A DNA stretch of 30,878 nucleotides from Pseudomonadota bacterium (GCA_043825735.1 JBDRRP010000025.1:62001-92878), one strand, 5' to 3'. Counted from the first letter of the stretch, positions 6,895 through 28,335 are shown. The notes: generated by a model not told the origin, from the letters alone. Program-made: numbers and translations.

Positions 6895-6900
6895 TTCAGA

Positions 6901-7298
6901 GACTTGTCCGCCGATGATTTGTGGCGGATTGAGGAATTCAGGGATTCAGGGATTCAGGGATTCAGGGATTGCGAATTGGCGGCCTTCCACCTTCGCCAAG
7001 GCTACGGCGGACAAGTCGGCCGGAGGGCAACTGCAAAATCGATTTAAACGCAGCCGGACGCGGGCAGGCGCAGACGAACAGCTTTCGGCCTAAAAGCGAA
7101 AACCAAAAAAGAAGACTATTGTCAGGATTTACAGGATAAACAGGATTGACGGCCTTCGGCCGAACGCCAAGTAAGAAACTTTTATTGTGCAGGTTTTTCC
7201 CGTGCACCGTGTACCTGCCCAAAGGGCACAATCCCTAAATCCCTGAATCCCTCAATTCCTAAATCCTTCAATTCCTAAATCCTTCAATTCCTGAATTC
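6901..7298. repeat. Composite intergenic repeat block: inverted 8-bp tandem arms enclosing hairpin/box units
   Basis: (CAGGGATT)x4 perfect at 6939-6970; 8 inverted AATYCYTN units at 7230-7293. Inside: 30-nt insert 6986-7015, GCAACTGCAA, ACAGGAT arm and CGGCC-TTC-GGCCG (7150-7162). Confidence 0.9.
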
Positions 7299-7308
7299 GG
7301 TTTTCCCC

Positions 7309-8721
7309 ATGCCAAACATCCTCCTATTCAACCCGCCCGGCCCGGCCGGAAAAGGCTACACCCGCGAGGGGCGCTGCACCCAGGAAGCCGGGGTGTGGGG
7401 TACGGTGTGGCCGCCGGTGACGCTGGCAACGGCCGCCGCACTCTTGCGCGAGCAGGGTCATGCGGTAACCGTGCTGGACTGTTCGGCCACCGGCATGAGC
7501 ATGGCCGGGTTGGAGACTGTGGTCCGCCGCCTCAAGCCGGATTTGGCCGTATGGAACACGGGCACCCCGACCCTGGCATGGGATCTGCGACTCGGGGCAC
7601 ACGTCAAAACATGGTCCAATAAGACCGTTACCGGGGTCATGGGCACCCACGTGACCGCACAGCCGGAACCAGCGCTGGCCGCTCCCGGCATCGATGCGGT
7701 CATCCGCCGGGAGCCTGAGGCCGTCATCGCCGCCATGGCCCGGGGCCTTCCGGATGACTGGCGAACGGTGGCCGGAATCTCTTATCTAAATAGCGCCACC
7801 GGTGCCCCGGTTCACAACCCGGATGCCGATTTTTTACCCCCGGAAAGCATCCCCGCTCCGGCGTGGGACACGCTCGATCTGTCACCGTACCGATTGCCGC
7901 TCAAGGGCCGGCACTTTGTCATCGTGGCCCCCATCCGCGGCTGCCCGTTTTCCTGCACGTTCTGCACGGCCCCGGTCTACTACGGCAAGCGGCTGCGAAA
8001 GCGGCCGGTGGCCGCCGTCGTGGATGAGATGGTCCAAAATGTTCGCCGGTTCGCGATCCGGGACTTTTTCATCTGGGCCGACACTTTCACTGCAGACCGA
8101 GGCTATGTCGCCGAATTCTGCCACGCCGTCCGTCATAGGCTGCCCGGTCCCGTCGCCTGGACCTGCAACAGCCGGGTAGACACGGTGGACGCCGAGCTGC
8201 TGGCGCTGATGAAATCCGCCGGCATGTGGATGATCAGCTTTGGCATAGAATCCGCCAATGACCGCATATTATCAGCGTGCGGCAAACGCATCTCCCGGGC
8301 CCAGTCCGAGGCGGCGGTCCGCGCCGCTGCCGCTCTGGGCATCAAGGTCTCCGGGCATTTTATTTTCGGCCTGCCCGGGGAGAGCAGAGCGTCCATGCGC
8401 GAAACCCTGGCCTTTGCCCTGTCGCTTCCCCTGGACATCGCCCAGTTTTACACGGCGGCCGCTTTTCCCGGCACGCGGCTTTACAGCGATGCACAGGCGG
8501 CCGGATGGTTCTCACCGGATACCGGTCAGGACCAGCACCGGTCCATGATGCACCTGCCGGGGCTTTCTGCAGCCACAATCGACCGTTTCCGGGAATCGGC
8601 CTTCCGCCGGTTCTATGCGCGGCCCTCGGCGCTCTGGCGCCTTGCCCGAATGGTGGAACCGCCAGCCATCCGCAACGTGATCACCAACCTGAAGGGATTT
8701 TTCACATGGGCCAAGCAGTGA
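7309..8721 (+). CDS. B12-binding-domain radical SAM protein
   Basis: RGCPFSCTFC (CxxxCxxC); N-terminal WPPVTLA...GTHVT cobalamin-binding-type domain; FGIESAN; HFIFGLPGES; FPGT. Confidence 0.9.
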   Translation: MPNILLFNPPGPAGKGYTREGRCTQEAGVWGTVWPPVTLATAAALLREQGHAVTVLDCSATGMSMAGLETVVRRLKPDLAVWNTGTPTLAWDLRLGAHVKTWSNKTVTGVMGTHVTAQPEPALAAPGIDAVIRREPEAVIAAMARGLPDDWRTVAGISYLNSATGAPVHNPDADFLPPESIPAPAWDTLDLSPYRLPLKGRHFVIVAPIRGCPFSCTFCTAPVYYGKRLRKRPVAAVVDEMVQNVRRFAIRDFFIWADTFTADRGYVAEFCHAVRHRLPGPVAWTCNSRVDTVDAELLALMKSAGMWMISFGIESANDRILSACGKRISRAQSEAAVRAAAALGIKVSGHFIFGLPGESRASMRETLAFALSLPLDIAQFYTAAAFPGTRLYSDAQAAGWFSPDTGQDQHRSMMHLPGLSAATIDRFRESAFRRFYARPSALWRLARMVEPPAIRNVITNLKGFFTWAKQ

Positions 8722-10436
8722 GCCCTCGATATGTACTCGGCATCTGGGATGGTCACGATGCCGGCGCCGCCCTGCTTGACGGTGGTCGCATCGTCATGGC
8801 GATCAATGAAGAGCGCCTCACCCGGCGCAAGCTCGAGGTGGGGTTCCCGTTTCTGAGTGTCCGCGCCTGTCTGGCCAACGCCGGCATCGGCCCTGAATCG
8901 GTCACCACCATCGCCGTTTCCACGAGCGATCCGGCAAAGACGCTCACCCGTCTGGTGCCGGGCCTCAAGGAGGCGTACTACCTTATCCGGCGGCGCAAAA
9001 AAGACCCGGGGCCGCTGGACCGGTTCAAGAAAGGCTTCAAATACAAGTTTACCGAGCTGGCGCCCAACCGGTTATCGGTGGCCTTGAGCCGACTCAACCT
9101 TCACGCCCTGCTTCGAAAGGAAGGATTTCGCCGCTACAGGCTGCACCTTATCGACCACCACCGCGCCCACGCCGAGGCGGCCGCCCGCCTGAGCGGGTTT
9201 CCGCGCTGCCTCGCGCTCACCCTGGACGGGGTCGGTGACGGACTCTGCGGCAGCATTTACACCTATGAAGACAGCCGCCTGAAGCGTATCGCCGCCCTGC
9301 CGTCCAACGCATCACTGGGCATTTTTTTTGAGCACGTCACCAACCTGATGAACATGCGGGAGCTGGAAGACGAGGGCAAGGTCATGGCTCTGGCCAACTA
9401 CGCCTACCCCATCAGCGACAGCGAAAACCCGCTCATGGAAGTGATCCAGTGCCGGGGGCTGTCCCTGGTCTCGCCCCACTCTGTGACCGCCATGTACCGG
9501 CAGATGAAAAAGATCTTCTGGCGCTTTCCCTCGGAGCAGTTCGCCTTCATGGCTCAGCAGGTGGTGGAAAGGCGCGCCATGGCGCTGCTCCAGAACGCAC
9601 TCGCGAAAACCGGCATGGACCGGGTGGCCGTGGCCGGGGGGCTTTTTTCCAATATAAAGTTCAACATGAAAGCGGCCGAGCACCCGTCGGTGAAACAATT
9701 TTTTGTGTTCCCCCACATGGGCGACGGCGGGCTGGCCCTGGGGGCGGCCATCGCCGCAGCCTCCCAGGACCATGGCCAAACCAGTTTCAGCATGGACAAC
9801 CTCTACCTGGGCCCTTCGTACGCAGATACCGACATCCCGGCGCTTCTGGACCGGCACCCGGTGACCTACCGCAGACTGGACGATCCGGCGCGCGTAGCAG
9901 CAGATTGCCTTCTGGCGAACGAAGTCATTCTCTGGTTCCAGGGGGCCATGGAACTGGGGCCCCGCGCCCTGGGAAACCGCAGCATTCTCGCCCGGGCCGA
10001 CAGCGTGGCCATCAAGGACCGGCTCAACATGGCGCTTAAAAAACGGGTCTGGTACCAGCCCTTTTGCCCCAGCATGCTGGAGACCGACGCCCCGGCCCTG
10101 CTGCACACGGAAGACCAGGACACCGCCTGCAACCGGTTCATGACTTCAGGCTTCAGGGTGCGCCGCGAACACCTGGGCACCATGGCCGGCGTCATCAACG
10201 TGGACGGCACCTGCCGGCCCCAGTTCGTGGGAGACGACAATCCGCGCTACAGGGATCTTCTTGGCCACATCAAGAGCGCCCTGGGCTATGGCGTGGTGCT
10301 CAACACCAGCTTCAACATCCACGGCGATCCCATGGTCTGCTCCCCGGAGGATGCGCTGGATACGCTGTTTCGAACGGGCGTGCGGCACCTGTTTTTGGAG
10401 GACTATCTGGTTGAAAACCCGAATGCTCGGGATTAG
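8718..10436 (+). CDS. Carbamoyltransferase, NodU/CmcH/TobZ family
   Basis: GTG 8718 overlaps the upstream TGA. VLGIWDGHDAGAAL, EERLTRRK, DHHRAHA, DGVGD, EGKVMALA, GPRALGNRSIL, PFCPS, DGTCRPQ and LNTSFNIHGDP motifs. Confidence 0.92.
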   Translation: MSPRYVLGIWDGHDAGAALLDGGRIVMAINEERLTRRKLEVGFPFLSVRACLANAGIGPESVTTIAVSTSDPAKTLTRLVPGLKEAYYLIRRRKKDPGPLDRFKKGFKYKFTELAPNRLSVALSRLNLHALLRKEGFRRYRLHLIDHHRAHAEAAARLSGFPRCLALTLDGVGDGLCGSIYTYEDSRLKRIAALPSNASLGIFFEHVTNLMNMRELEDEGKVMALANYAYPISDSENPLMEVIQCRGLSLVSPHSVTAMYRQMKKIFWRFPSEQFAFMAQQVVERRAMALLQNALAKTGMDRVAVAGGLFSNIKFNMKAAEHPSVKQFFVFPHMGDGGLALGAAIAAASQDHGQTSFSMDNLYLGPSYADTDIPALLDRHPVTYRRLDDPARVAADCLLANEVILWFQGAMELGPRALGNRSILARADSVAIKDRLNMALKKRVWYQPFCPSMLETDAPALLHTEDQDTACNRFMTSGFRVRREHLGTMAGVINVDGTCRPQFVGDDNPRYRDLLGHIKSALGYGVVLNTSFNIHGDPMVCSPEDALDTLFRTGVRHLFLEDYLVENPNARD

Positions 10437-10555
10437 CCGCAGATGAAAAGGTGGGGAAAATCCTAAAAACAACTGCAAGGGCGAATTAACCGCAGATTAC
10501 ACGGATTACGCGGATGGACGGCGTGCGGCCGGAGGGCGCCTGTGCGGCGCTTAAA
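10431..10555 (+). repeat. Left repeat block of GxxExxY cassette 1
   Basis: AACTGCAA box, 9-mer arm ATTAACCGCAGATTACACGGATTACGCGGAT (10485-10515), and degenerate GC hairpins. Confidence 0.85.
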
Positions 10556-10578
10556 TCGGTTAACATGCTGATAATAAA

Positions 10579-10959
10579 ATGAATTTAAATGCAGTGACAT
10601 ACGCGATCAATGGTGCCATTTTTGCTGTTCACTCGACGCTTGGCGCGGGCTTCCTGGAAAAAGTATACGAAAATGCGTTGATGATAGAGTTGAAAAACAG
10701 ATCTCTTGATGCCGAAAACCAAGTGCCGTTGACTGTTCAATATCAAGGGCAGCCAGTTGGAGAGTACTTTGCTGATATCGTCGTCAATAATCAAGTCATC
10801 CTTGAAATCAAGGCTGTCATACGAATAGACAAAATTCATGAAGCACAATTGCTCAACTACCTGAAAGCCAGCGGGTTTCAAGTGGGGTTGTTGGTAAATT
10901 TCAACGCTGTAAAGGCTGATATCCGCAGATTTGTAATGACACCAGACAATAGCATTTAA
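10579..10959 (+). CDS. GxxExxY protein (PD-(D/E)XK-like putative nuclease)
   Basis: LGAGFLEKVYENAL, ADIVV, ILEIKA, AQLLNYLKASG...GLLVNF. AT-rich relative to neighbouring genes. Confidence 0.93.
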   Translation: MNLNAVTYAINGAIFAVHSTLGAGFLEKVYENALMIELKNRSLDAENQVPLTVQYQGQPVGEYFADIVVNNQVILEIKAVIRIDKIHEAQLLNYLKASGFQVGLLVNFNAVKADIRRFVMTPDNSI

Positions 10960-10976
10960 CGTTTTTGACTTTTAAT

Positions 10977-11075
10977 ATCCGCGTAATCTGCGTAATCTGC
11001 GGTTAATCTTGCAGTTTTTTTTAACTTTTATTATCCGCGTAATCTGCGGTTAATTATGCAGTTGCAGTTGGTTTT
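10977..11075 (-). repeat. Right, inverted repeat block of GxxExxY cassette 1
   Basis: 10977-11007 is the reverse complement of 10485-10515 (29/31). Second arm at 11033-11054. TTGCAGTT-type boxes. Confidence 0.88.
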
Positions 11076-11131
11076 TGGCTTTTTGTCATTTTTTTAAACC
11101 ATCAGCGGTTCATCCTTATAAATGATGCCTC

Positions 11132-12844: not shown

Positions 12845-12855
12845 GGGGATGCTGG

Positions 12856-13138
12856 CGGGCGGCCTTTGACCGGAAAAGCAACTACAATTTATCCACAGAT
12901 TGCGCCTACACGGCTTAAAAGCGACACAGATTAACACAGATTAAAAGCATGGGGTGGCGGCCTTCCACCTTCGCCAAGGCTACGGCGGACAGGTCGGCCG
13001 AAAGGCAACTGCAAAAGATTTTTGGCACGGATTACGCAGATTACACGGTAAATAAGTTTAACGGCGCCTTCAGCGCCTTTAACCGCGTAATCCGCGTCGC
13101 TTTTTAAGCCGTGTAGGCGCAAATCCGTGCCAAAAAAG
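12856..13138. repeat. Composite repeat array upstream of TA1
   Basis: Hairpin-box-arm units, 22-nt insert (12904-12925), 30-nt insert (12964-12993), palindromic unit TTGGCACGGATT...AATCCGTGCCAA (~13021-13133). Confidence 0.9.
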
Positions 13139-13152
13139 ATTTTCCTGATTTC

Positions 13153-13186
13153 TTGACAGACTTAGTCCACCAACATAAACTAAGTC
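13153..13186 (+). promoter_or_regulatory. Sigma70-like promoter with overlapping operator for TA1
   Basis: TTGACA-N17-TAAACT (13153-13181). Inverted repeat GACTTAGT (13159-13166) / ACTAAGTC (13179-13186). Confidence 0.75.
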
Positions 13187-13214
13187 AAAAAACAACTCGT
13201 AAGCGAGGTGCGAG

Positions 13215-13463
13215 ATGCGAACCATCAATATCCATGAAGCCAAGACACACCTGTCGCGTCTGGTCGAGGAGGCGGCAAAAGGCAATGCCTTCATCATCGC
13301 CAAGGCAGGTAAGCCTATGGTCAAGGTGGCGCCGATATCCGAAGCTGATGTCAAAAGCGCTGAAAAACTGGGATTCATGGCCGGTGAAATATCCGTGCCG
13401 GACGATTTTGACGCACTTGGCGTTGCTGAAATTGTGGGGATCTTCGAAGGGGACGCACCGTGA
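13215..13463 (+). CDS. Phd/YefM-family antitoxin (TA1)
   Basis: MRTINIHEAKTHLSRLVEEAAKG..FIIAKAGKP signature; GTGA overlap with the toxin. Confidence 0.92.
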   Translation: MRTINIHEAKTHLSRLVEEAAKGNAFIIAKAGKPMVKVAPISEADVKSAEKLGFMAGEISVPDDFDALGVAEIVGIFEGDAP

Positions 13464-13846
13464 AGCTCCTGCTGGACACGCACATCCTCCTGTGGGCTGC
13501 CGGGCAATCGGAAAAACTCTCAGAGTCGATTCGCTCCCTTTTGTCGGCACCCGAGAACAGTCTAAATTTCAGTGCGGCAAACATCTGGGAGATCGTCATC
13601 AAGCTGGGACTTGGGCGTGAAGATTTTAAGGTCGATCCCTACCGCTTGCGAAAGATGCTCGTTGTGCATGGATATACCGAATTGCCGATAACCGCCGAGC
13701 ATGCCTTGATGGTCGATACACTGCCGTTGCTTCATAAAGACCCCTTTGACCGATTGTTGATTGCACAGGCCCGTTCAGAAGGGATGCTACTGGTTACCGC
13801 CGATACTGCCGTTGCTCAATATCAGGAATCGGTGCTGGCGGTTTAA
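13460..13846 (+). CDS. vapC: VapC PIN-domain toxin (TA1)
   Basis: LLLDTHILLW, SAANIWEI, HKDPFDRLLIAQA and LVTAD motifs. Confidence 0.93.
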   Translation: MKLLLDTHILLWAAGQSEKLSESIRSLLSAPENSLNFSAANIWEIVIKLGLGREDFKVDPYRLRKMLVVHGYTELPITAEHALMVDTLPLLHKDPFDRLLIAQARSEGMLLVTADTAVAQYQESVLAV

Positions 13847-13859
13847 CTACGCAGGGCAC

Positions 13860-14160
13860 ACCCACCACATAGAGAATTAGCCGCGGAGAAAGATTAGCGG
13901 CCTGCGGCCGAAGAGCAACTGCAACGGCTTAATGGCACGGATGGCGCCTACACGGCTTAAAAAGCGACGCGGATTACGCAGTTGAAAAATATTTCAGCGC
14001 CTACGGCGCTTTAATCCGCGTAATCCGTGTAATCCGTGCCAAAAAGAGGTTCTCCCGCCCCCGGCGGGCAGTTAACGCAGTGCCCAGTACTTTAATCCGA
14101 TCCAAACGATCTTAACGCTCTAAACGATCCTAACGATCCTAACGATCCAAACGAACCCCA
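13860..14160. repeat. Composite repeat array downstream of TA1
   Basis: CGGCC-TGC-GGCCG plus GCAACTGCAA; palindromic unit TGGCACGGAT...ATCCGTGCCAA with central AGCGCC-TAC-GGCGCT; 23-nt insert 13946-13968; about six AACGATCYN units at 14105-14158. Confidence 0.9.
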
Positions 14161-14169
14161 AAGACCAAA

Positions 14170-15009
14170 ATGAAAAAGATCTTTGCCATTAACCTGGCCA
14201 TATTAACGGTAATTCTGGGCCTTGCCCTCTCGACATCGTCAGCGGCAACCATAGTCCCTGGCATTGACATCGATCATGCCTTGAGGCCGGATGGCACGCT
14301 GACGATCGAGGCCTACCTGTCCAACGAAGGGGATGTACCATTGCACCATGCCACGGCAACGATTTTCTTTGCCGACCAGGCATCCCGCTCCGGAGATCTG
14401 GGAAACTGCCGTCCCGAAAACGAGGTGGCGTTCACGGCATCGTTTGGTGCGGACCAAGTGACGCCCGGAGATTACATGGCCATGGTCCGGTTCAACTACG
14501 AAGAGCCCTCCGGACGAACGCACCGCTCGTTTCACACGCAACTGATCCGCATCCCGGGTGGTGATAATGTCAACGTGAAGACCCTTTTGGAATCCGCAGC
14601 CCAAGTGCCCACGTTCAATACCAAGGCATTCTGGAAAAATGAAGACCATCTCCGGCTTGTGCTGAAAAACGGCCACAAGCAGCCCATCACCCCGCATATT
14701 GTCTTCTATCTGCCCAACGCCATCTTCGCCCCCCACGACACGCTGCGCCCGACGCTGACGCCGGGAGAAAACGCTACCATCGATATCCCGCTGGTCTACA
14801 CCGGTGAGTTTCAAAACGGCGGGGCGTTTATCGCCGTGGCCCAGTACGAACTGGACGGCCGGCACTATGCCATGACTATCCGGGGCGATGTCATGGTGAT
14901 CAGCAAACCGGTGCTTTTCAAGGGATATGTCATTGCTTCGCTGCTGATCTTCATCTTCGCCGGGGCGTTTTTTATGCGACAACCGAAGGTCAAAAGCGAA
15001 GCAATTTGA
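14170..15009 (+). CDS. Secreted protein with two beta-rich (Ig-like?) domains and a C-terminal membrane anchor
   Basis: Signal peptide, two beta-strand-rich halves (LSNEGD, LKNGHK), C-terminal TM helix followed by basic residues. Function unknown. Confidence 0.7.
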   Translation: MKKIFAINLAILTVILGLALSTSSAATIVPGIDIDHALRPDGTLTIEAYLSNEGDVPLHHATATIFFADQASRSGDLGNCRPENEVAFTASFGADQVTPGDYMAMVRFNYEEPSGRTHRSFHTQLIRIPGGDNVNVKTLLESAAQVPTFNTKAFWKNEDHLRLVLKNGHKQPITPHIVFYLPNAIFAPHDTLRPTLTPGENATIDIPLVYTGEFQNGGAFIAVAQYELDGRHYAMTIRGDVMVISKPVLFKGYVIASLLIFIFAGAFFMRQPKVKSEAI

Positions 15010-15547
15010 CAGGATTAACAGGATTAACAGGATAGTGGCGGCCTTCCACCTTCGCCAAGGCTACGGCGGACAGGTCGGCCGGAAAGCAACTGCAAAAGAT
15101 TGTTGGCACGGATTACGCGGATAGTGATTGGCGGCCTGCGGCCGAAGGGCAACTGCAAAGAGATTTGACAGGATTAACAGGATAGACAAGATAAAGGCGG
15201 CCTTCCACCTTCGCTAAGGCTACGGCGGACAAGTCGGCGGACAAGACGGCGGATAAGTCGGCCGGAGGTCTTATTGGGCAGGCAACAGAGGGCAAATAAC
15301 AGAGAACCGATAACGGGCTCTTAAATCTTCACTTTTTACTATTCACAATTCACTGTTCACTGCTTTTCCCCCGGCGACCCGATTCGGACAGAACTTGGCG
15401 CTCTTCGCGTCCTTTGAGGTTCAATGTATTTGCAGTTTGCTTTTTTCTGTCATCTGACCTTCTGACATCTGACCTCCGATCTTCGCGGTTCAATGCCTTG
15501 CTTTTGGCTGCCATCTGCTTGCCCGCCATAGCTTTAGCGAAGGAGGG
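15005..15547. repeat. Composite repeat array between convergent genes
   Basis: Three arm-hairpin units in series (15005-15267), the first two followed by the box; three 30-nt elements; TTCAC, CTTCGCG and TCTGAC arms; ends exactly at the vapC stop (15548). Confidence 0.9.
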
Positions 15548-15967
15548 TTATCTCCCACCGTTGGTCCCTATCCATTGAATCTCAACCAGGTGGGAGACGG
15601 ACTGAAACTCGGGATCACCGGTAACGAGCACGGCCGAATGGTCAATGGCACATGCTAAGGCGAAGCTGTCTGCGTAGGAAAGCGGGTATTGGGCTTTGAA
15701 GTCAGCCGCTTTAAAAACCAGATCGTTTGGCACCGGCAGCAGGGTAACTCCCAACTGGTATATGCGGGACAATATTTCGAGCTTTTTTTCGTCTCCAAAG
15801 CGTCTCTTGGTCAGGTATATGATTTCCCCAAGGTTGATCATGCACATCAACCGATCAAGATCGTGCTTCAGGCACTTTCGAAGAATCTCCGCGACGGTTT
15901 CCGCCCCGCTTTCGTTTTGAAAGAATGCCAACAGGGCATGGCTGTCAAAAAGGTAGCCGGTTGCCAT
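15548..15967 (-). CDS. vapC: VapC PIN-domain toxin (TA2)
   Basis: Start moved to ATG 15967. YLFDSHALLAF, NLGEI, LSYADSFALA and LVTGDPEF motifs. Confidence 0.9.
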   Translation of the reverse strand: MATGYLFDSHALLAFFQNESGAETVAEILRKCLKHDLDRLMCMINLGEIIYLTKRRFGDEKKLEILSRIYQLGVTLLPVPNDLVFKAADFKAQYPLSYADSFALACAIDHSAVLVTGDPEFQSVSHLVEIQWIGTNGGR

Positions 15968-15969
15968 GG

Positions 15970-16194
15970 TTATGCATCTTTCCGGCGCTCTTTGAGCAGT
16001 TCTGCCGACAAGGAGGGTGCACGGGGGAGGCATCCCATAGCGCTTTGCACCGCATCCTCAGAAGGCGGTACCAGATAGATGAGGTTGCCGTATTCGAATA
16101 TCTGTATGGGCATACCCGGCCCGATCTTGTATTTTTTTCGAATTGCAGCCGGTATGACGATTTGTCCCTTGGCAAGCACTTTGACGGTTTCCAT
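15970..16194 (-). CDS. AbrB/MazE/SpoVT-type antitoxin (TA2)
   Basis: VKVLAKGQIVIPAAIRKKYKIGPG; lies directly upstream of the PIN toxin. Confidence 0.9.
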   Translation of the reverse strand: METVKVLAKGQIVIPAAIRKKYKIGPGMPIQIFEYGNLIYLVPPSEDAVQSAMGCLPRAPSLSAELLKERRKDA

Positions 16195-16228
16195 TGTCGC
16201 CCCCCAATAGAGTTAAACATTTTTTGAA

Positions 16229-16257
16229 AAGATATAACGTTTTGGGCATACCGTCAA
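16229..16257 (-). promoter_or_regulatory. Sigma70-like promoter for TA2
   Basis: TTGACG-N17-TATCTT on the minus strand. Confidence 0.55.
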
Positions 16258-16420
16258 ACTTATTGTGAAATAGGGCCGAAGGGTAACTGCAGAATGGGGC
16301 GCAGAGAAAAATGATTTGGGCGCTACGCGCGGAACAACAAAAACAGTCATAAAACCCCAGTGAAAAGTTAAAAGTGAAAAATATGTGTCATGGTTATGCA
16401 TTTACCTTTTCACTTATAAT

Positions 16421-16576
16421 TATTGTTCATCCGTGGGAAGCTTCTTGCTCCCTCTCCCTTGATGAGAGGGCTGGGGTGAGGGTGACAACCCACCGATAAC
16501 AAGAGATCATCTTATGCGGACCGCCCCCTCCCCTGGCCCCTCCCGCAAGGGGAGGGGTATTTATGTATGGACAATA
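16421..16576. mobile_element. MITE-like element, copy 2 (~156 bp)
   Basis: Colinear with 1581-1727. Ends TATTGTTCATCC / GTATGGACAATA (10/12 inverted). Confidence 0.75.
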
Positions 16577-16597
16577 ACTATTCACTTTTCGCTGCTT

Positions 16598-16723
16598 TTC
16601 TAACGCTCTTAATGCGCCGCAGGCGCCTAACCCGGAACCTGGAACGCCGTGCAGCGGCCAGAACGCGACCTCCGGTCGCCCGAACGCCGCGCAGCGGCCT
16701 GAACCCGCCGCAGGCGCGCGCCC
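16598..16723. repeat. GAAC-linked mini-hairpin array, inverted partner of 20152-20258
   Basis: GCGCC-GCA-GGCGC, GCGACC-TCC-GGTCGC and GCCGC-GCA-GCGGC separated by GAAC; abuts the stop at 16724. Confidence 0.85.
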
Positions 16724-17782: not shown

Positions 17783-17805
17783 GGAGTCGTGGTATTCCTT
17801 CAAAT

Positions 17806-17839
17806 AAAAAAGCACCCTGCAAAGGAGCTTGCAGAGTGC
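17806..17839 (-). terminator. Intrinsic terminator immediately upstream of the WecA-like gene
   Basis: Minus strand reads GCACTCTGCAAG-CTCC-TTTGCAGGGTGC-TTTTTT. Confidence 0.65.
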
Positions 17840-17879
17840 CTGTTCTTACGGAAAAACTAGTGTTAAATCAAGGCTTTTA

Positions 17880-18241
17880 AGGAGGGCAACGGCAACTACA
17901 ACTGCGGGTTATCCGCAGATTGCGCAGATTTACGCAGATTAAAACCAAAGGAGGGCGGCCTGCGGCCGGAAACGTCCAGATGACAGGAACAGCAATAGAA
18001 AAGATTTGACAGGATTAACAGGATAGACAGGATGGGAGCGGCCTTCGGCCAGGAACTGCCAGACGACAGAAAAACCAACTGCAAAAGCAAATGTACCGCA
18101 GACCTAAACGATCCTAACGTTCCTAACGATCCCAACGATCCCAACGATCCTAACGATCCTAACGATCCTAACGATCCTAACGATCTAAACGATCCCAACG
18201 ATCCCAACGATCCCAACGATCCCAAGGCGGCCCGAAGGGCT
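17880..18241 (+). repeat. Composite array ending in a 13 x 9-bp tandem repeat
   Basis: Arms CGCAGATT and ACAGGAT, hairpins with TGC/TTC loops, AACTGC boxes, (AACGATCCY)x13 at 18107-18223, and GCCC-GAA-GGGC next to the stop at 18242. Confidence 0.92.
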
Positions 18242-20143: not shown

Positions 20144-20149
20144 AGACTC

Positions 20150-20345
20150 TTCGGGCCGCCTGCGGCGGCGTTCATGCGACCGGAGGTCGCGTTCGGCCGC
20201 TACGCGGCGTTCCAGGTTCTGCGCCTGCGGCGCGTTTAGATCGATATGAGCGTTTAGAAGGAGGAAGCTCGTAGAGCGAAGGAGGAAGCCTTGGCGAAGG
20301 TGGAAGCTTTAGCGAAGGCGGGTCCTCCGACCTCTGCCCTCTGGC
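20150..20345. repeat. GTTC-linked mini-hairpin array plus tandem half-copies of the 30-nt element
   Basis: Four triloop hairpins at ~20154-20234; three AGC..GCGAAGG(A/T/C)GG half-units at ~20266-20322. Confidence 0.85.
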
Positions 20346-20348
20346 AGT

Positions 20349-22574: not shown

Positions 22575-22594
22575 AGTCACATCGAAGAGAGTTT

Positions 22595-22803
22595 TATCCA
22601 CAGATTACACAGATTTCCACAGATTAAGGGCAAAAAAGGGTGGCGGCCTACGGCCGGGAAACCGTGGCTGTGGCTGAGGTTTTTTGAGTCTGCAGCTGGG
22701 GGCTAAATATCCTAAATCCTTTATTTTGTCTACACCCTCAGTACAGTTTTACCCATCTCTCTTTGAATCATAAAATCTGTAAAATCTGTGTAATCTGTGG
22801 ATA
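22595..22803. repeat. Palindromic unit downstream of GxxExxY gene 2
   Basis: TATCCACAGATTACACAGATTT...AAATCTGTGTAATCTGTGGATA arms, CGGCC-TAC-GGCCG, and a ~55-bp core repeated at ~23479-23535. Confidence 0.9.
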
Positions 22804-22815
22804 CAGCTGATTATA

Positions 22816-23187
22816 TTAGAAGACCAGGCGTTTGTATTGGAGAGATTTTGTGCCGAAATTGATCAACAGCCCAACACCATACCCGGAGGCTTTCAGGTAG
22901 TTGATTACTTGGGACTCTTCTGTGCCTGAGAGTTTCTGAATGGCTTTGATTTCTACGATTATGGAATCGTAACAAATGAAGTCGGGCTGGTATGTTTTTG
23001 TCAGTGGACTATCTTTGTAGAGAATCTGAATTTGGGGTTGTGGAGTGAATGGTATATCCTGGAGTGAGAATTCTCTCTCAAGTGCTTCTTGGTAAACTTG
23101 TTCAAGGAAACCAAAACCGAGTTCCCGGTGGACTTCCATGGCCGCACCGATGATTCGGTATGAATTTTTGTCACCTTTTACTGCCAT
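22816..23187 (-). CDS. GxxExxY protein (PD-(D/E)XK-like putative nuclease)
   Basis: IIGAAMEVHRELGFGFLEQVYQEAL, PDFIC, IIVEIKA, QVINYLKASG...GLLINFG. Start ATG 23187 or GTG 23199. AT-rich. Confidence 0.93.
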   Translation of the reverse strand: MAVKGDKNSYRIIGAAMEVHRELGFGFLEQVYQEALEREFSLQDIPFTPQPQIQILYKDSPLTKTYQPDFICYDSIIVEIKAIQKLSGTEESQVINYLKASGYGVGLLINFGTKSLQYKRLVF

Positions 23188-23254
23188 GATATCATCCACG
23201 GATTAGATGCAACACGTTGGGGGCTAGGGCGGAAAAACAAACTTCAAAACCTTT

Positions 23255-23690
23255 ATCATCCACAGATTACACAGATTTACACAGATTAAAGGCAAAAAGG
23301 GTGATGGCCTTCGGCCAGACAGCGACTGCTGGTTTTCCACAGATTAACGACAAAGGTTAGCGGCCTGCGGCCGGAAAACCTTAACTGCAACAGCAACACC
23401 TATGTATCCACAGATTACACAGATTTCCACAAATTAACGGCGAAGGGGTTGGGCCTGCGGCCTGGAGCTTGATATCCATTTTTGTCTGCACCCTCAGTTC
23501 AGTTTTAACCATCTCTCTTCGGATTTCAAAATCTGTGGATATATTGTAGTTGGTTTTTGCTTTTCCGGCCGTAGGCCGTATCTCTTGTGGGTATTAATCT
23601 GTGGAAATCTGTGTAATCTGTGGAGTAGATTCTTCGCTTTTCGCTGTCCGGCCGTAGGCCGTTAAATTTTCTTCGGTTTGAATCTGTGAA
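23255..23690. repeat. Nested inverted array upstream of GxxExxY gene 2
   Basis: Three forward CACAGATT arms, each followed by GGCC-TNC-GGCC, then three reverse AATCTGTG arms with two CGGCC-GTA-GGCCG hairpins. Confidence 0.9.
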
Positions 23691-23699
23691 TAATTTCTT

Positions 23700-24566
23700 T
23701 TACGACTTCAACCGCAACGTCGCGGTCACCGGATAGTGATCCCCCGCGCTTTTCTTAACGACCTTTGCATCCAGCACAGCCACGCCATCTGAAACAAAGA
23801 TGTAATCGATCCGCGGATTCACCGGAAATGCAATCTTGTGATAGGTCCCGGTGAAATAACCGAAGGTGGGCCACAAAGCATCCTGGAAGTGATCTGTCAT
23901 TTGCCGGATGGTCCGCGAGCCCGGCACTGTATTGAAATCGCCGCCGATAATGACCGGCATTGACACTGCATCCTTTGCAAGGGCTTTTACCAGGGAATGG
24001 GCGCTCTCGGTACGTACCGTGTCGGTGAACACTTCCCCCCTTAAAATTTCCAGGATTTCCCTTCCTGTAAAAGCCACGACACCACCGGAGTCCCTTTTCT
24101 TCGGCGTCACCTCATCAAGATGCACCGAGCACGCCGTGACGTTTTTACTGCCGATATCCACAACGGCGCACAAGGCCCCTGCCCCCTTGCCATGAGTGAG
24201 CAATGGGTATTCGCGGGTGTCCCTGATCGGATAAACCGAGAGCACAATGAGCCCGGCCATTTTCCCGCGCCTAAGGGCCGGTGCGCTTTGGTATGGGTAT
24301 TCGAGCGTTTCCTGCAGCGCGCCGCCGGCTTTGCCTGATGGCATCTCCTGGAGAAACAGGATATCGGGCTTTCCTCCGGCTGTGATCTGAGCCGCCGTCT
24401 CCACCACCGGAAACCCGAGTCGCCCCACGTCACCCACGTTGCAGGTCATGGCCGTAAACGGAGGCGCCCCGGCGCCGTCAGCACCCGGACGATGCACGGC
24501 CCAGGCAATGCCGATGCCGAGCGAGACCACAAAAGCAGTAATGATGATCAGGCGGTTTTTATGCAT
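23700..24566 (-). CDS. Endonuclease/exonuclease/phosphatase (EEP) family protein with N-terminal membrane anchor or signal
   Basis: MTCNV, DILFLQE, SVHL, IIGGDFN, RIDYIF and GDHYPV motifs. Confidence 0.9.
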   Translation of the reverse strand: MHKNRLIIITAFVVSLGIGIAWAVHRPGADGAGAPPFTAMTCNVGDVGRLGFPVVETAAQITAGGKPDILFLQEMPSGKAGGALQETLEYPYQSAPALRRGKMAGLIVLSVYPIRDTREYPLLTHGKGAGALCAVVDIGSKNVTACSVHLDEVTPKKRDSGGVVAFTGREILEILRGEVFTDTVRTESAHSLVKALAKDAVSMPVIIGGDFNTVPGSRTIRQMTDHFQDALWPTFGYFTGTYHKIAFPVNPRIDYIFVSDGVAVLDAKVVKKSAGDHYPVTATLRLKS

Positions 24567-24576
24567 AACTGGGATA

Positions 24577-24899
24577 TGGCACGGCTATGGGTGGCCCGCC
24601 GGGGGCGGAGGAAAACCCTTTTTGGCACGGCGTTGATGGCCCGCCGGGGGCGGGGAAAACCTTTTTGGCACGGATGGCGCCTACACGGCTTAAAAAGCGA
24701 CACGGATTACGCGGATTTTGGCGCTGAGAGCGCCCTAAATTTTTAACCGCGTAATCCGTGTAATCCGTGCCAAAGACTTTTTTGCAGCGCTAAAGGCGCT
24801 TTAATCCGCGCCATCCGTGTCGCTTTTTAAGCCGTATAGGCGCAAATCCGTGCCAATAGGCTTTTGCAGTTGCCTTTTTGTTTTCCCGTCATCCGTGAA
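24577..24899. repeat. Composite repeat block downstream of TA3
   Basis: ~38-bp tandem duplication (24592-24630, 24637-24673), TTGGCACGG...CCGTGCCAA palindrome, two 23-nt inserts, TTGCAGTTGC box. Confidence 0.9.
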
Positions 24900-25247
24900 T
24901 CATACAATATCAACGATCAGCTTTATGCCTTGCGCGACCTCTTCCATTTTTTTATCGGACAGGGTGCCGATTTTTTCGGTGAGGCTTGCCTTGTCGACGG
25001 ATTTAAATTGAGTGACGTTGATAACGCACCGCTTTGGCATGTTTGCCTCGCCTTTTCGCAGCGTTACATTCCCGGGAAGGTCCCCGAATTTCAAAGTCGA
25101 GGTGATGGCAAGCATCACCACGGTATTGATTTTGCTGTCATTCAATGCGTCGGCTTGAATCACCAGCCCGGGACGGCGCCCTATCGGTTCAGAGCCTTTG
25201 CCGGGGGAAAAATTCACCCAAAATATGTCCCCTCTCCGTATTACCAT
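24900..25247 (-). CDS. mazF: PemK/MazF-family toxin (TA3)
   Basis: IRRGDIFWVNF.P.KGSEP.GRRPGLVIQ...N, AITS. Confidence 0.92.
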   Translation of the reverse strand: MVIRRGDIFWVNFSPGKGSEPIGRRPGLVIQADALNDSKINTVVMLAITSTLKFGDLPGNVTLRKGEANMPKRCVINVTQFKSVDKASLTEKIGTLSDKKMEEVAQGIKLIVDIV

Positions 25248-25495
25248 TCCTGACCGCCTTCATGGCCGGCGTCTTCGAGGCTTCTCGACATTTTGAGTTG
25301 CTCGTCTCGGATGCTTTCATCAGAAAAAACGCTGTCATAAGACTCCGTAATAAATCGTTTTTTTTCATTCTCTATTTTCTCGCTGACAGCCTGGGCGATG
25401 TACCGGCTACGAGACACGCCCTTAATTTTTGACAATGTATCAACTTCTTTGATCAACATCTCAGGTATTGTGATAGCGACTTTTTGAGTATGCAT
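25241..25495 (-). CDS. Ribbon-helix-helix (CopG-type) antitoxin (TA3)
   Basis: KVAITIPEMLIKEVD...SRSRYIAQAV; overlaps the toxin start. Confidence 0.88.
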   Translation of the reverse strand: MHTQKVAITIPEMLIKEVDTLSKIKGVSRSRYIAQAVSEKIENEKKRFITESYDSVFSDESIRDEQLKMSRSLEDAGHEGGQEW

Positions 25496-25536
25496 CGATA
25501 GACCCCCTTATGGTATGCAGCATATCGAATATCAAA

Positions 25537-25565
25537 ATAGTAATACACTGAGGTGCAAGGATCAA
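25537..25565 (-). promoter_or_regulatory. Sigma70-like promoter for TA3
   Basis: TTGATC-N17-TACTAT on the minus strand. Confidence 0.5.
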
Positions 25566-25589
25566 GGGCAACTTTTAGTGCGGATTTCG

Positions 25590-25915
25590 ACCAGAGATCG
25601 GAGGTCAGATGTCAGAGGTCAGGGAACTGCAAGACATTGAACCGCGAAGGGCGTGAAGGACGTAAAGTTTGTCCGAATCGGGTCGCCGGGGAAAAAGCAT
25701 CCCGGCTCACGATTAGCGCCAGAGGCGCGTTCAGGCCGCCTGCGGCAGCGTTTCAGGTTCGGCGCCGATGGCGCGTTAGAAAAGCTCGGTTGTCCGTTAT
25801 CTGCCCACTGATTTCTGACTTCCGACCTCAAAGGTTTTTCTGCCCTCTGTCGTCTGTCGTCTGTCGTCTGGCAGTTCCCGGCCACAGGCCGCCAAACTGT
25901 TTAATCCGTGCCAAT
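25590..25915. repeat. Composite repeat block between TA4 and TA3
   Basis: 7-mer GTCAGAG arms and inverse TCTGTCG arms, CGCGAAG arm, triloop hairpins; 25595-25698 is an inverted copy of 15362-15482. Confidence 0.88.
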
Positions 25916-25956
25916 ACAATAGGTTCCAGGGACACGTGCGATCAGCGGGCCCCTGG

Positions 25957-26232
25957 TCACTGGCGTTTTTCCATCAGCGGATAGATTTCCTTACGATGGC
26001 AGATACCTAATATTAGAATCTCATCGTCGGCCACCTGGAACACGATGCGATAATCTCCGACCCTGAGCTTCCAGTAGCCTTTAAGGTTCTTTCGCAAGGG
26101 CTCGCCATATTCCTGAGGGGCGATCATGAGACGGTTTTCAATCGCTTTTCTGATCCGCTGCCGGACATCAGCACTGAGCTTCGGGATATCCCGCCGCTTG
26201 ACATCGAGGTGGTAGAGAACCGAAAACGACAT
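25957..26232 (-). CDS. relE: RelE/ParE-family toxin (TA4)
   Basis: GEPLRKNLKGYWKLRVGDYRIVF...ICHRKEIY. Confidence 0.92.
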   Translation of the reverse strand: MSFSVLYHLDVKRRDIPKLSADVRQRIRKAIENRLMIAPQEYGEPLRKNLKGYWKLRVGDYRIVFQVADDEILILGICHRKEIYPLMEKRQ

Positions 26233-26233
26233 G

Positions 26234-26461
26234 CTACTCCCAAACCGCTTTGTGGCTCAAAGCTTTCCGGCGATCAAAACTGTTCTCGCGCTCCGCGGCG
26301 AAATCAACCAACGCCTGGTCTTCACGCAATTCCAGTGCCTCTTTCACCAGATCGCGCATCAGCATCGACATGGAGATGCCGGCGTCTTCCGCAAGACAGT
26401 GCAGGGCGTTATAGAGGGGCGTTTCAAGCACAACATTGATTCTGGGGTTTTTTGCTGGCAT
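26234..26461 (-). CDS. RHH-type antitoxin (TA4)
   Basis: Start ATG 26461 with AGGAG RBS; MPAKNPRINVVLE...SMSMLMRDLVKEALELRED...LSHKAVW; lies directly upstream of relE. Confidence 0.85.
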   Translation of the reverse strand: MPAKNPRINVVLETPLYNALHCLAEDAGISMSMLMRDLVKEALELREDQALVDFAAERENSFDRRKALSHKAVWE

Positions 26462-26482
26462 GGCCTGACTCCTTTGAAATAG

Positions 26483-26511
26483 AGTGTGCCACTTGTGTTC
26501 CACCTCGTCAA
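26483..26511 (-). promoter_or_regulatory. Sigma70-like promoter with direct-repeat operator for TA4
   Basis: TTGACG-N17-CACACT, containing GTGGAACAC / GTGGCACAC direct repeats. Confidence 0.5.
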
Positions 26512-26658
26512 GCCTTCAGGGAGATTGCACCTATACGGAAAGATATGGGCACTGCGATAGAGGGCCGCCTGCGGCGGGGAAAACCTTTTTGGCACGGATG
26601 GCGCCTACACGGCTTTTATTGTTATTTTTTTTGCACTCAAACAGTGCCACCCCTTTTC

Positions 26659-27045
26659 CTAAAGCGTTACCAACCCCGGGATGAGATTGAAATGCTTATC
26701 TCTTGAAAACAGTTTATAACCATGCTGAAAAGCGACGGCGCCGATCCATATATCATTGGTCGGAATGGGCGTTCCCGCCACCTTCAGGTTGTTCAATATG
26801 GCGGCATAAAAATCAGCTGTCCCGGCATCGATGGCGTGAACGACAACCCTGGGTGAATCCATAAACGCATTGAGTGCTTCCCTGTTCTCGAGTTCCCGGC
26901 GACCGCCTTTAAAGCCTGAAAAAAGTTCACCGATGCTAATAACCGAAAAACCGATCAAATCCAATCTTCTCAACACGGAGACGATATCCTCATCGCCCTT
27001 CATGGCCAGCGAATAGATGTTTGTGTCAATCAAGACTTTGTTCAT
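26659..27045 (-). CDS. vapC: VapC PIN-domain toxin (TA5)
   Basis: VLIDTNIY, IGEL, GTPIPTNDIWIGA.A and SRDKHF motifs; ATGA overlap with the antitoxin. Confidence 0.92.
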   Translation of the reverse strand: MNKVLIDTNIYSLAMKGDEDIVSVLRRLDLIGFSVISIGELFSGFKGGRRELENREALNAFMDSPRVVVHAIDAGTADFYAAILNNLKVAGTPIPTNDIWIGAVAFQHGYKLFSRDKHFNLIPGLVTL

Positions 27046-27302
27046 TTCCACAGATCCTGATCAATTTGGCGCGCCTGGTGAATCCTCTCTTGAATTTCTG
27101 CAAATTCCTCATCGCTCCATTTGCCGAACAGGTCGTCCAAGTCGCTGTATTCGCGCGAATAGGTCTTTTCCTTATTGAGGCCAAGGCCTGCCTTGATGAT
27201 GTCAATGGTCAGTTGATTGACACTTTTGCCCTGTTCCATTGCCTTCATTTTGAGTTTTTCGGCCACCTCGGGCTCAACACCGCGAATTGTGACAGCCTTC
27301 AT
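27042..27302 (-). CDS. FitA-like RHH antitoxin (TA5)
   Basis: MKAVTIRGVEPEVAEKLK..A...GKSVNQ; DLDDLFGKWS. Confidence 0.85.
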   Translation of the reverse strand: MKAVTIRGVEPEVAEKLKMKAMEQGKSVNQLTIDIIKAGLGLNKEKTYSREYSDLDDLFGKWSDEEFAEIQERIHQARQIDQDLWK

Positions 27303-27350
27303 ATGCCCTCCCTGAATTGAGATGCCATTTTATGCTTTCATATTGCAACC

Positions 27351-27379
27351 ACTTTATGACATCATCGGGATGGTGTCAA
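27351..27379 (-). promoter_or_regulatory. Sigma70-like promoter for TA5
   Basis: TTGACA-N17-TAAAGT on the minus strand. Confidence 0.65.
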
Positions 27380-27399
27380 ATCCATTTTAATCCGGTATA

Positions 27400-28335
27400 G
27401 GTTGCCCTTCGGGCAGGCGCCTGCGTCGGGTTAAGAGCGTTTGGAGCGTTAAGATCGTTGGGAGCGTTTGGATCGTTGAGATCGTTGGGAGCGTTGGGAG
27501 CGTTAAGCACCTTCGGTGCGTTCCGGGTTCGGCGCCGGAGGCGCATTCGGCCGCTGCGCGGCGTTCAGGCCGCCTGCGGCGGCGTTCCAGGTTCCGGGTT
27601 CCGGGTTTAAGGATTTGCGGACTCAGTCCGCTATCCTGAGAATCCTGTATATCCTTGTTGTTCGAAGCCGTTGGGCTGTAAAGCTTTTACTACCCACTTT
27701 GTCTGCGCTTTGCACCTGGCGCCACTGTCATCTGTCATCTGTCGTCTTGCAGTTCCCGGCCGGCTTGTCCGCCGTAGCCTTGGCGAAGGTGGAAGGCCGC
27801 CAACTCTTTGGTTTTAATCTGCGCTAATCTGCGCAATCTGCGGATAACCAGCAGTTGATGTTGCAGTTGCTTTTCGGCCAAAGGCTGCCAATCTGCCACA
27901 AACCGTCGGCGGACAAGTCCTGTAAATCTTGTCTGATTAGCCCTTCGGGCTGGTACACGGTACACGGTGCACGGTACACGGTTTTGCGGCAGAAGGCCGC
28001 CACCCCTTGGTTTTAATCTGTGTTAATCTGTGCAATCTGTGGATAACCCGCAGTTGATTTTCGCCTTTCCGGCCGACTTGCCCTCCGTCTTGTCCGCCGT
28101 AGCTCGTAGTGCGAAGGTGGAAGGCCGCCAACTCTTTGGTTTTAATCTGCGCTAATCTGCGCAACTTGTCCGCCGAAGCCTTGGCGAAGGAGGATCTGTG
28201 GATAACCCGCTGTTGAAGTTGCAGTTGCACTTCGGCCGACTTGTCCGCCGTAGCCTTGGCAGAGGTGGAAGGCCGCCACCCTTTTATTTTAATCTGTGTC
28301 GCTTTTTAAGCCGTGTAGGCTCAATCTGTGGATAA
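27400..28335 (-). repeat. Largest composite array (~0.94 kb)
   Basis: 8 x 9-bp GAKCGTT units (27433-27504), GTTC-hairpin array, five arm-hairpin-box units, four 30-nt elements and one 23-nt element. Confidence 0.92.

Follow-up and report, generated by a model that had tools for sequence, protein, structure and literature searches.

The 30,878-bp stretch of DNA analysed here (the window) spans positions 62001–92878 of contig C25 in a 6.8-Mb draft genome of a Pseudomonadota bacterium (G000:C25:62001-92878). It contains polysaccharide and glycosylation genes, two genes of the GxxExxY family, five toxin-antitoxin (TA) pairs, and the subject of this study, a set of intergenic arrays built from a box (BOX), a small GGCC-NNN-GGCC hairpin, and arms, which are tandem 7-10-mers of several families (A–M, labels coined here). 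A first-pass annotation, made from the sequence alone, had read these arrays as a system that captures and shuffles gene cassettes. Below, G000 is this genome, G001, G002, G009, G018, G035, G044, and G089 are other genomes with which it was compared, C denotes a contig, and L numbers denote examined loci or contigs, L118, L124, and L130 being metagenome contigs of a sister species. Genes were called with our own caller, which reproduced the window annotation.

Between positions 6895 and 28343, the window has 15 intergenic gaps longer than 100 bp (~5.9 kb in total), and array motifs were present in all 15. Motifs other than the hairpin occurred 99 times in 5,913 intergenic bases versus 4 times in 17,662 coding bases, and Tandem Repeats Finder recovered the named arm families where they had been described. 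Thus, the roughly 15 blocks with shared motifs and the ~10 switching arm families of the first-pass annotation are real. The same grammar was found in the three sister-species contigs, which come from another metagenome, so the arrays are not an assembly artefact. Arrays do break assembly: four contig termini (the end of L049, both ends of L048, and the start of L051) finish in one and the same 104-bp array segment. The GNA loop of the hairpin is selected: the loop was GAA, GCA, or GTA at 89 of 102 GGCC-NNN-GGCC sites beside arms or boxes versus 95 of 623 sites elsewhere in the genome. Such loops read TNC on the box strand and C(GNA)G on the opposite strand, and a GNA loop with a C:G closing pair is the more stable DNA triloop (PMC3201870).

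What is the repeated unit? The order first proposed, arm-hairpin-box, named real elements in the wrong phase. Segments common to several loci mostly start at BOX and stop at the hairpin. At the first GxxExxY gene of the window (GxxExxY-1, TIGR04256/PF13366, 10579..10959, + strand), both inverted arms are capped on the outside by BOX, and the left arm has a degenerate hairpin on its inner side: the left end of the element (10469..10560, +) consists of BOX, linker, three copies of the A1 arm, and the degenerate hairpin, and the right end (10977..11071, −) consists of two inverted A1 arms with BOX, is complementary to the left arm at 94% over 31 nt, and is terminator-like on the + strand. Because shared segments run from BOX to hairpin and BOX caps these arms, the module is better read as BOX-linker-arm (×3)-hairpin, a ~70-bp left end of a GxxExxY/four-helix-bundle-type element, and the "hairpin+box" is the joint between two neighbouring units. 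Its constancy had been overstated, since the window holds 8 exact boxes, 2 exact joints, and 4 further joints with a 29-nt insert in the hairpin loop. Across the genome, box-linked arms belong to families A1 (39), A2 (23), A3 (16), A4 (10), E (7), A5 (5), and a few others; in the window, many blocks are nested inverted pairs.

Both GxxExxY genes of the window pass the TIGR04256 model (146.5 and 143.5 bits against a cut-off of 35), and the residues of a D..ExK motif are visible in both proteins. A PDB sequence search with GxxExxY-1 returned no match below E 0.2, and the function of PF13366 is listed as "Unknown" (PMC3424549). Arms were found at 7/7 GxxExxY genes and 3/3 full four-helix-bundle genes of the genome, four of the GxxExxY genes lying between inward arms and three beside or between closed gene-less hairpins. 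GxxExxY-2 (22816..23187, −; D..ExK intact) lies between two closed A3 elements; a closed gene-less A3 element occupies 22590..22808, and a nested A3 palindrome, with modules on the + strand and then on the − strand, occupies 23195..23690. Relatives carry the same element designs, often with small GNA hairpins inside, and the GxxExxY-1 cassette is absent from the same carbamoyltransferase-PMT junction in G009 and G044. These data show that the arms are the ends of GxxExxY and four-helix-bundle elements; for these genes, the earlier notion of single-gene cassettes is supported, also by the junctions of G009 and G044 that lack the cassette, and it did not extend to the TA pairs, as described below. 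In G018, head-to-tail arrays of complete B-arm elements follow a GxxExxY gene (L083, G018:C99:8735-12076), and an arm+GxxExxY unit is duplicated in tandem, 871 bp apart (L085/L087).

Arm family roughly tracks the GxxExxY tree for the B, A2, A3, and J/G/L arms and does so poorly in the GxxExxY-1 clade: a 7-row clade (support 100/98) has six B-arm genes, and an A3 pair is supported at 97/84. For each of the commonest box-linked arms, A1, A2, and A3, the genome encodes an intact cognate GxxExxY protein (the set of three comprises window 10579, window 22816, and C151:8417), and the two closest A2 cognates are found in the genomes with the most A2 arms (30 and 10 copies).

Two micro-inserts interrupt the modules. 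When every printed context was inspected, a 29-nt palindromic element (69 copies in G000, with variants up to 34 nt) proved to lie almost exclusively within other repeats, namely the hairpin loop, A and E arms, the loops of GTAG-type repetitive extragenic palindromes (REPs), and TCATCCC-type repeats. Of 56 copies that could be measured, 37 have a 1-nt duplication and 39 add exactly 30 nt. The copy at 6987..7015 (+), in a hairpin loop and with the 1-nt duplication, is an example; others lie at 12965, 15046, and 15205 (+) and at 27764 and 28165 (−, the latter inside an arm). An element of ~23 nt (57 copies in G000) follows TT within arms of the 9-mer and 8-mer families, for example at 12902..12923 (+), with further copies at 13944, 24677, and 26601 (+) and at 13105, 24828, and 28307 (−). 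The 29-nt element is patchy, occurring in 5 of 151 genomes of the phylum, mostly again inside repeats (L174-L192), and the exact ~23-nt pattern has 41 copies in G000, 1 in G001, and none in 119 other genomes. The micro-inserts point to a real DNA-level insertion activity, and their sharp ends and repeat-only targets suggest that an enzyme or a microhomology-driven conversion acts on these structures. A DNA-level function had been proposed at first pass; insertion into hairpins supports that part, and the argument from array orientation fails (see below).

The inserts also bear on a bolder mechanism, in which an enzyme would recognise single-stranded GNA hairpins and arms by structure and write modules of 23–70 nt, leaving a polar record of the arm families met. 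Two sharp-ended inserts placed almost only inside repeats of unrelated sequence would fit such templated or programmable writing, as would the alternation of a constant joint with variable arms at a period of ~70 bp, the polar order of arms described below, the lineage restriction of the joint and the ~23-nt insert, and the patchiness of the 29-nt insert. However, the would-be spacers are ~10 recurring families and not unique sequences, no leader or dedicated gene stands beside the arrays, and microhomology-driven gene conversion among repeats could yield the same pattern, so that we find this mechanism quite unlikely. Nor are the arrays of CRISPR type: besides the recurring families, their joints are degenerate, and no cas or effector genes were found among 25–26 window proteins and 192 flanking proteins scanned (192 of 199 called genes at 20 loci picked for arrays or for GxxExxY/four-helix-bundle genes).

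Within the window, the modules combine in several ways. At 6926..7296, an inverted pair of D arms (GGGATTCA 8-mers) surrounds hairpin(+29-nt insert)-BOX-A5, B-hairpin, and F modules. The array at 12856..13140 reads BOX-A3(+~23-nt insert)-hairpin(+29-nt insert)-BOX, followed by a closed gene-less A2 hairpin element, and the one at 13899..14154 reads hairpin-BOX-closed A2 element, followed by a C arm (AACGATCCY) directly 5′ of the next start codon. At 15009..15546, B-hairpin(+insert)-BOX-A2-hairpin-BOX-B-hairpin(+insert) on the + strand is followed by I, G, and E arms and a 29-nt insert on the − strand. The single-orientation array at 17892..18239 (+), BOX-A3-hairpin-B-hairpin-E-BOX-C ×13, is antisense to its neighbouring genes, one of seven such arrays in the genome; the longest array (27405..28335, −), with A3, hairpin(+insert), BOX, F, E, and H modules and C at its end, is sense to wcaJ. 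Smaller blocks comprise an H arm (CCYGGAA) with GCGCC-type hairpins (16610..16720), hairpin, H, and C remnants with tandem remnants of the 29-nt insert (20150..20330), an A2 element with an alternative cap, ~23-nt inserts, and BOX on the − strand (24577..24873), a pair of E arms around a G element with BOX-like, hairpin, and A2 sequences on the − strand (25592..25930), and an A2 cap with a ~23-nt insert (26548..26620, +). A separate palindromic repeat of ~160 bp (16417..16580) stands outside the BOX grammar; it also occurs at ~1577-1727 of the window, in more than 20 copies in G000, and in G001.

The five TA pairs, Phd-PIN (13215..13846, +; a passenger between two A2 elements), AbrB-PIN (15548..16194, −), RHH-MazF/PemK (24900..25495, −), RHH-RelE/ParE (25953..26517, −), and FitA-PIN (26659..27302, −), all have Pfam toxin and antitoxin matches, some of the antitoxins below the curated cut-off. 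As first reported, and as the motif map, Pfam, and TIGR04256 confirm, all five and both GxxExxY genes border arrays. Are the arms then the ends of single-gene cassettes in general, with hairpin+box as their recombination site, like attC? Besides the bordering genes themselves, several observations favour this. The RelE pair is duplicated at G000:C151:2288-2852 (85% over 565 bp), and both copies sit in arrays; in G018, a Phd-PIN homologue lies inside a B-arm element with a ~13-bp duplication (L194, G018:C99); the arm+GxxExxY unit is duplicated in tandem in the same genome; and G000 has two integron integrases. The details speak otherwise. The RelE duplication runs from promoter to stop only, with different arms on each side and no unit in common between the copies. 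L124 lacks both TA pairs of G000:C68, of which one has no border units and the other has them on one side only; alignment of orthologous loci bears out cassette behaviour for GxxExxY-1, as seen in G009 and G044, and not for these TA pairs.

Most genes of these toxin families lie away from arrays. Arrays are close to only 3 of 27 PIN genes (28 rows, one long atypical row dropped) and 1 of 5 MazF-like genes, every one of them in the window, against a background of 2.9%, which leaves 24 of the 27 PIN genes elsewhere. Tandem arms were near 4 of 27 and 2 of 26 homologues elsewhere versus 10 of 24 for GxxExxY, according to a crude, insensitive detector with a weak shuffle control that missed the G018 Phd-PIN case. 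Attachment sites of integron type were also lacking: paired RYYYAAC/GTTRRRY boxes 55–145 bp apart (the R″/R′ pair, sought with a simple pattern and not a covariance model) occurred in 0 of the 15 gaps (0.24 expected from shuffles). The two integrases above the TIGR02249 cut-off (G000:C139:144283-145524 and C64:807-2051) are near contig ends on contigs other than that of the window, and neither the genes nor the gaps next to them resemble such cassettes. Since gene order is moreover conserved in G001, G002, G009, and G044, we judge cassette capture and shuffling to be very unlikely. TA pairs are attracted or tolerated by the arrays without having the arms as their ends, and host genes are not shuffled; that arrays act as landing sites for TA pairs and micro-inserts is partly shown.

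No recombinase or intact transposase had been noticed nearby. This holds for the window, which has only transposase fragments at 29.75–30.9 kb (29753-30880: an IS3-type fragment directly upstream of wcaJ and a further one near 30.5 kb, which we take to be IS5-like), and it does not hold for the genome, which has, besides the integrases, eight Y1 transposase (Y1_Tnp) and seven reverse-transcriptase matches elsewhere; one reverse-transcriptase gene (G000:C50:1045-1725) is ~2 kb from arrays. A XerC-type recombinase ~10 kb upstream of the window was set aside: because it belongs to a conserved hslVU-argB operon, also present in G001 and G002, we treat it as a housekeeping gene. The Y1 matches, together with the GTAG-type REPs of the genome and the REP-like location of the arrays, would suit a hairpin that is a REP moved by a Y1 tyrosine transposase, as in REP-associated tyrosine transposase (RAYT) systems. 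However, none of the eight Y1_Tnp genes is bracketed by modules, one having a decayed module upstream, and on direct reading of the printed contexts the hairpin carries no GTAG tag, which makes this origin highly improbable. With respect to miniature inverted-repeat transposable elements, closed elements have terminal inverted repeats, and 64 of 82 arrays are single-orientation; of target-site duplications, the 1-nt duplication of the 29-nt insert is the one that can be resolved at this divergence.

How old are the arrays? G000 contains 22 exact copies of the hairpin+box pattern, and 120 other genomes of the order, with the same genus represented, contain none. The pattern matched 13 times in a species-level genome collection, always as an armless singleton, and 13 times in metagenomes, of which 3 are real arrays on the sister-species contigs and 10 armless singletons; the 13 and the 10 armless matches were set aside as chance. 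Viral contigs gave no match to the pattern, and neither did an Rfam search at the gathering threshold give any. Because the joint is lineage-restricted while the arms are widespread, there is no support for hairpin+box as a general att site, the shared recombination or target site proposed at first pass; the hairpin/BOX cap arose recently in the lineage and was added to arms that are old and widespread.

At junctions orthologous to arrays, hairpin or box was found in 0 of 13 cases in G001 and 0 of 3 in G002, with gene order kept. Some of these junctions are empty or overlapping, and others have unrelated REP-type repeats or, by inspection, their own TA pair: in G001, Phd/RelE-like and MNT/HEPN-like pairs (by inspection) occupy sites where G000 has arrays (L092, G001:C92, murJ-lptE gap; L095, G001:C124), and such TA-like pairs suggest that the junctions are hot spots. 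G001 has plain C arms and one closed A2 element in common with G000, and these are therefore older. The GT2-rSAM junction, which holds the nest of D arms in G000, is ~10 bp long in G044 and, in G009, is occupied by a decayed four-helix-bundle gene that has inverted arms of its own (L011:2056-2490). Even in the sister species, the arrays of L124 (~86% identity) have a single module in common with those of G000:C68 and differ in the rest. One array on that contig (L053:5680-5720) starts within the 3′ end of a gene of the pfkB family and takes the place of the stop codon present in L124.

Genome-wide, we counted at least 82 arrays, 64 of single orientation, 16 convergent, 1 divergent, and 1 mixed; this is a lower bound because our regular expressions partly miss the J, K, and 8-mer M arms. 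The densest arrays are in two polysaccharide regions. Many others lie between ilvD/ilvB/ilvH, topA, arg genes, transaldolase, leuS/rne, rpsT/murJ, coaBC, maf, and nadA, and in sec operons, a distribution that does not support a polysaccharide-specific system, and the genes flanking arrays at the scanned loci have no functional theme.

Contrarily to the first-pass statement that orientation does not follow gene direction, arrays between co-directional genes are sense in 32 cases versus antisense in 7 (p = 7e-5), and the argument for a DNA-level function built on that statement fails with it. Divergent gaps hold only 4 of 82 arrays versus 23% of background gaps, and 50 of 62 single-strand arrays come after a same-strand stop codon, half of them within ~35 bp. 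The arrays are also ordered: D comes first (7:0) and C last (39:2), the C arm being terminal in 33 of 35 blocks with the next gene starting on the same strand in 26 of 32 scored. An effect of replication strand was rejected, without a skew analysis, since within individual contigs (C25, C151) the arrays change strand along with the genes. Terminator-like sites numbered 1 on the module strand, which is T-poor, versus 73 on the opposite one (shuffles, 1.3 and 44); selection against antisense placement is therefore a simple explanation, although the effect is mostly compositional. Antitermination was also considered for the antisense arrays in polysaccharide loci: a second NusG-family gene (RfaH/UpxY-like by inspection; G000:C121:77650-78180, 5′ of an ihfB-like gene) is not adjacent to them, and one ops-like pattern gave no intergenic site.

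Such a layout could also mean that the host has co-opted the arrays as mRNA elements (protein-binding repeats, processing or stability hairpins, or antisense terminators) that tune operon expression. The sense bias, the placement after stop codons, and the terminal C arm before a same-strand gene agree with this, the C arm resembles the TAACTGA repeats proposed as translational signals (PMC4679880), and the GxxExxY-1 arms fold around their gene (z -5.9). With respect to an rRNA-IVS-like cassette excised from RNA, whose arms would have to pair around the ORF, GxxExxY-1 folds in this way and three of the seven GxxExxY genes have other arm arrangements. Yet array content differs between sister species and arrays are absent from the same genus, unlike a conserved regulator; the flanking genes lack a theme; and a GNA triloop with C:G closing is a DNA-type motif, with no Rfam match. 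RNA-level control is thus unlikely, in our estimation.

What, then, are the arrays? On balance, we lean towards a fast-changing, lineage-specific intergenic mosaic, similar to Neisseria intergenic mosaic elements (NIMEs) and bacterial interspersed mosaic elements (BIMEs), which derives from the ends of GxxExxY and four-helix-bundle elements and collects passengers, rather than a shuffling machine. Each arm family is the terminal repeat of one such element; in its full forms, the gene has inverted arms on either side or is framed by two closed gene-less hairpins. One cap, with BOX outside and the GNA-loop hairpin inside, is common to several arm families in the lineage, and ~70-bp modules are gained and lost at fixed junctions while genes stay put. 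New modules may insert into existing repeats just 3′ of stop codons and may grow or shrink by slippage or recombination between direct-repeat hairpins and boxes, leaving older D and C arms at the outer ends. Purifying selection could then keep the T-poor strand in mRNA because the other strand is full of terminator-like sites, hairpins with U-tracts. Finally, the arrays probably serve as tolerant landing pads for TA pairs and the two micro-inserts, passengers that are not arm-ended.

The likeliest candidate mobiliser of the mosaic would be a cognate GxxExxY nuclease acting on single-stranded hairpin ends, a suggestion that we make tentatively, with belief somewhat behind doubt; it is favoured because A1–A3 each have an intact partner and A2 copies peak in the genomes with the closest partners. 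A wider proposal, which we regard as speculative and probably too strong, is that GxxExxY proteins (PD-(D/E)XK) are the mobilising nucleases of a widespread and so far undescribed class of tandem-arm mini-elements, with subfamily-arm pairing as between RAYT and REP. Here, a structure-specific activity on single-stranded GNA hairpins and arms would write modules of 23–70 nt and passengers into repeats, building the ordered arrays.

Several facts weigh against the mosaic and its proposed mobiliser. The strand asymmetry of terminator-like sites comes mostly from base composition; five of the seven antisense arrays are in polysaccharide loci, and no antiterminator was found beside antisense arrays. 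The presence within arrays of both RelE copies and of all five TA pairs of the window exceeds the 2.9% background. A close A2 cognate gene is missing from G001, G089, and G035, which carry 7, 5, and 3 A2 arms, respectively; in the tree clade containing GxxExxY-1, some arm labels are mixed and others absent; and no cognate gene in G000 matches the abundant A4, B, E, and C arms. Neither excision nor a circle is seen in the sole run with this DNA, which consists of assembled contigs; joints at repeats, having short sides and a possible origin in other organisms, were left out. The relatives are distant (74–86% DNA identity), and the sister species is represented by three short contigs only.

GxxExxY and four-helix-bundle genes are common and still unexplained. 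This genome offers filled sites with their empty counterparts, three nuclease-arm pairs that are intact (A1, A2, and A3), a selected GNA hairpin, and sharp-ended inserts of 23–29 nt, materials that suffice to define substrates for a direct test of how the repeats spread. It also has a NIME-like mosaic far outside Neisseria whose variable parts are traceable to source elements, and which may explain how mosaics form. GxxExxY-driven writing, if true, would amount to a new chemistry of short-DNA insertion, together with hyperparasitic micro-elements; should the arrays be no more than decaying debris, their value is mainly for annotation (broken assemblies and false open reading frames).

In the mostly open-access literature searched, we found no description of these arms with GxxExxY genes or of such arrays, and the accessible parts of a noncoding survey (10.64898/2026.10.21.760802) and of the myRT preprint do not describe the arrays. 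The best structural analogue is the NIME, the Neisseria arrays of dRS3 and RS repeats (PMC1797815), followed by BIME and BOX. As in NIMEs, many variable families alternate with one short constant palindrome, arrays at syntenic junctions differ in number and length, and other repeats insert opportunistically; a recombinase-target role was proposed for NIMEs, which the accessible text reports only in Neisseria (PMC1797815). Unlike NIMEs, the arrays have no 20-bp inverted repeat of dRS3 (by reading, no dRS3 search having been run), the constant part being another hairpin and box; their variable parts can be identified as tandem 7-10-mer arms of GxxExxY/four-helix-bundle elements; and they are strand-polar, ordered, and often in housekeeping operons rather than beside surface genes. 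With BIME/REP and pneumococcal BOX (PMC3184786), they have in common modular extragenic repeats, small GC hairpins, location at gene 3′ ends, and lineage-specific bursts, but they differ from BIME/REP in having no GTAG-tagged REP and no flanked RAYT, and in modules that come from tandem-arm elements. TA genes between palindromes and integrases in the genome recall integron arrays and clusters of attC sites lacking integron-integrases (CALIN), from which the arrays differ by the lack of R″/R′ boxes, by host genes that are not cassettes, and by unlinked integrases (CALIN needs no adjacent IntI).

The "global regulator sites" of Geobacter metallireducens, classes 1-3 (PMC2700814), are likewise inverted pairs of 4–5 tandem heptamers or octamers at variable distance, and class 3 (MTYCTGA) matches our E arm. 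However, these sites were read as IHF/HU sites, and the accessible text links them neither to GxxExxY/four-helix-bundle genes nor to multi-family arrays (PMC2700814); in G. bemidjiensis, repeats cluster non-randomly in shared gaps (PMC2996986). The C arm, a sense short direct repeat before start codons inside operons, is like the TAACTGA repeats of Beggiatoaceae, which are a single heptamer family described in the accessible text without hairpin or box (PMC4679880). Compared with plain GxxExxY/four-helix-bundle cassettes, what is new here is that ~10 arm families are chained into arrays, linked by one cap, and carry nested micro-inserts.

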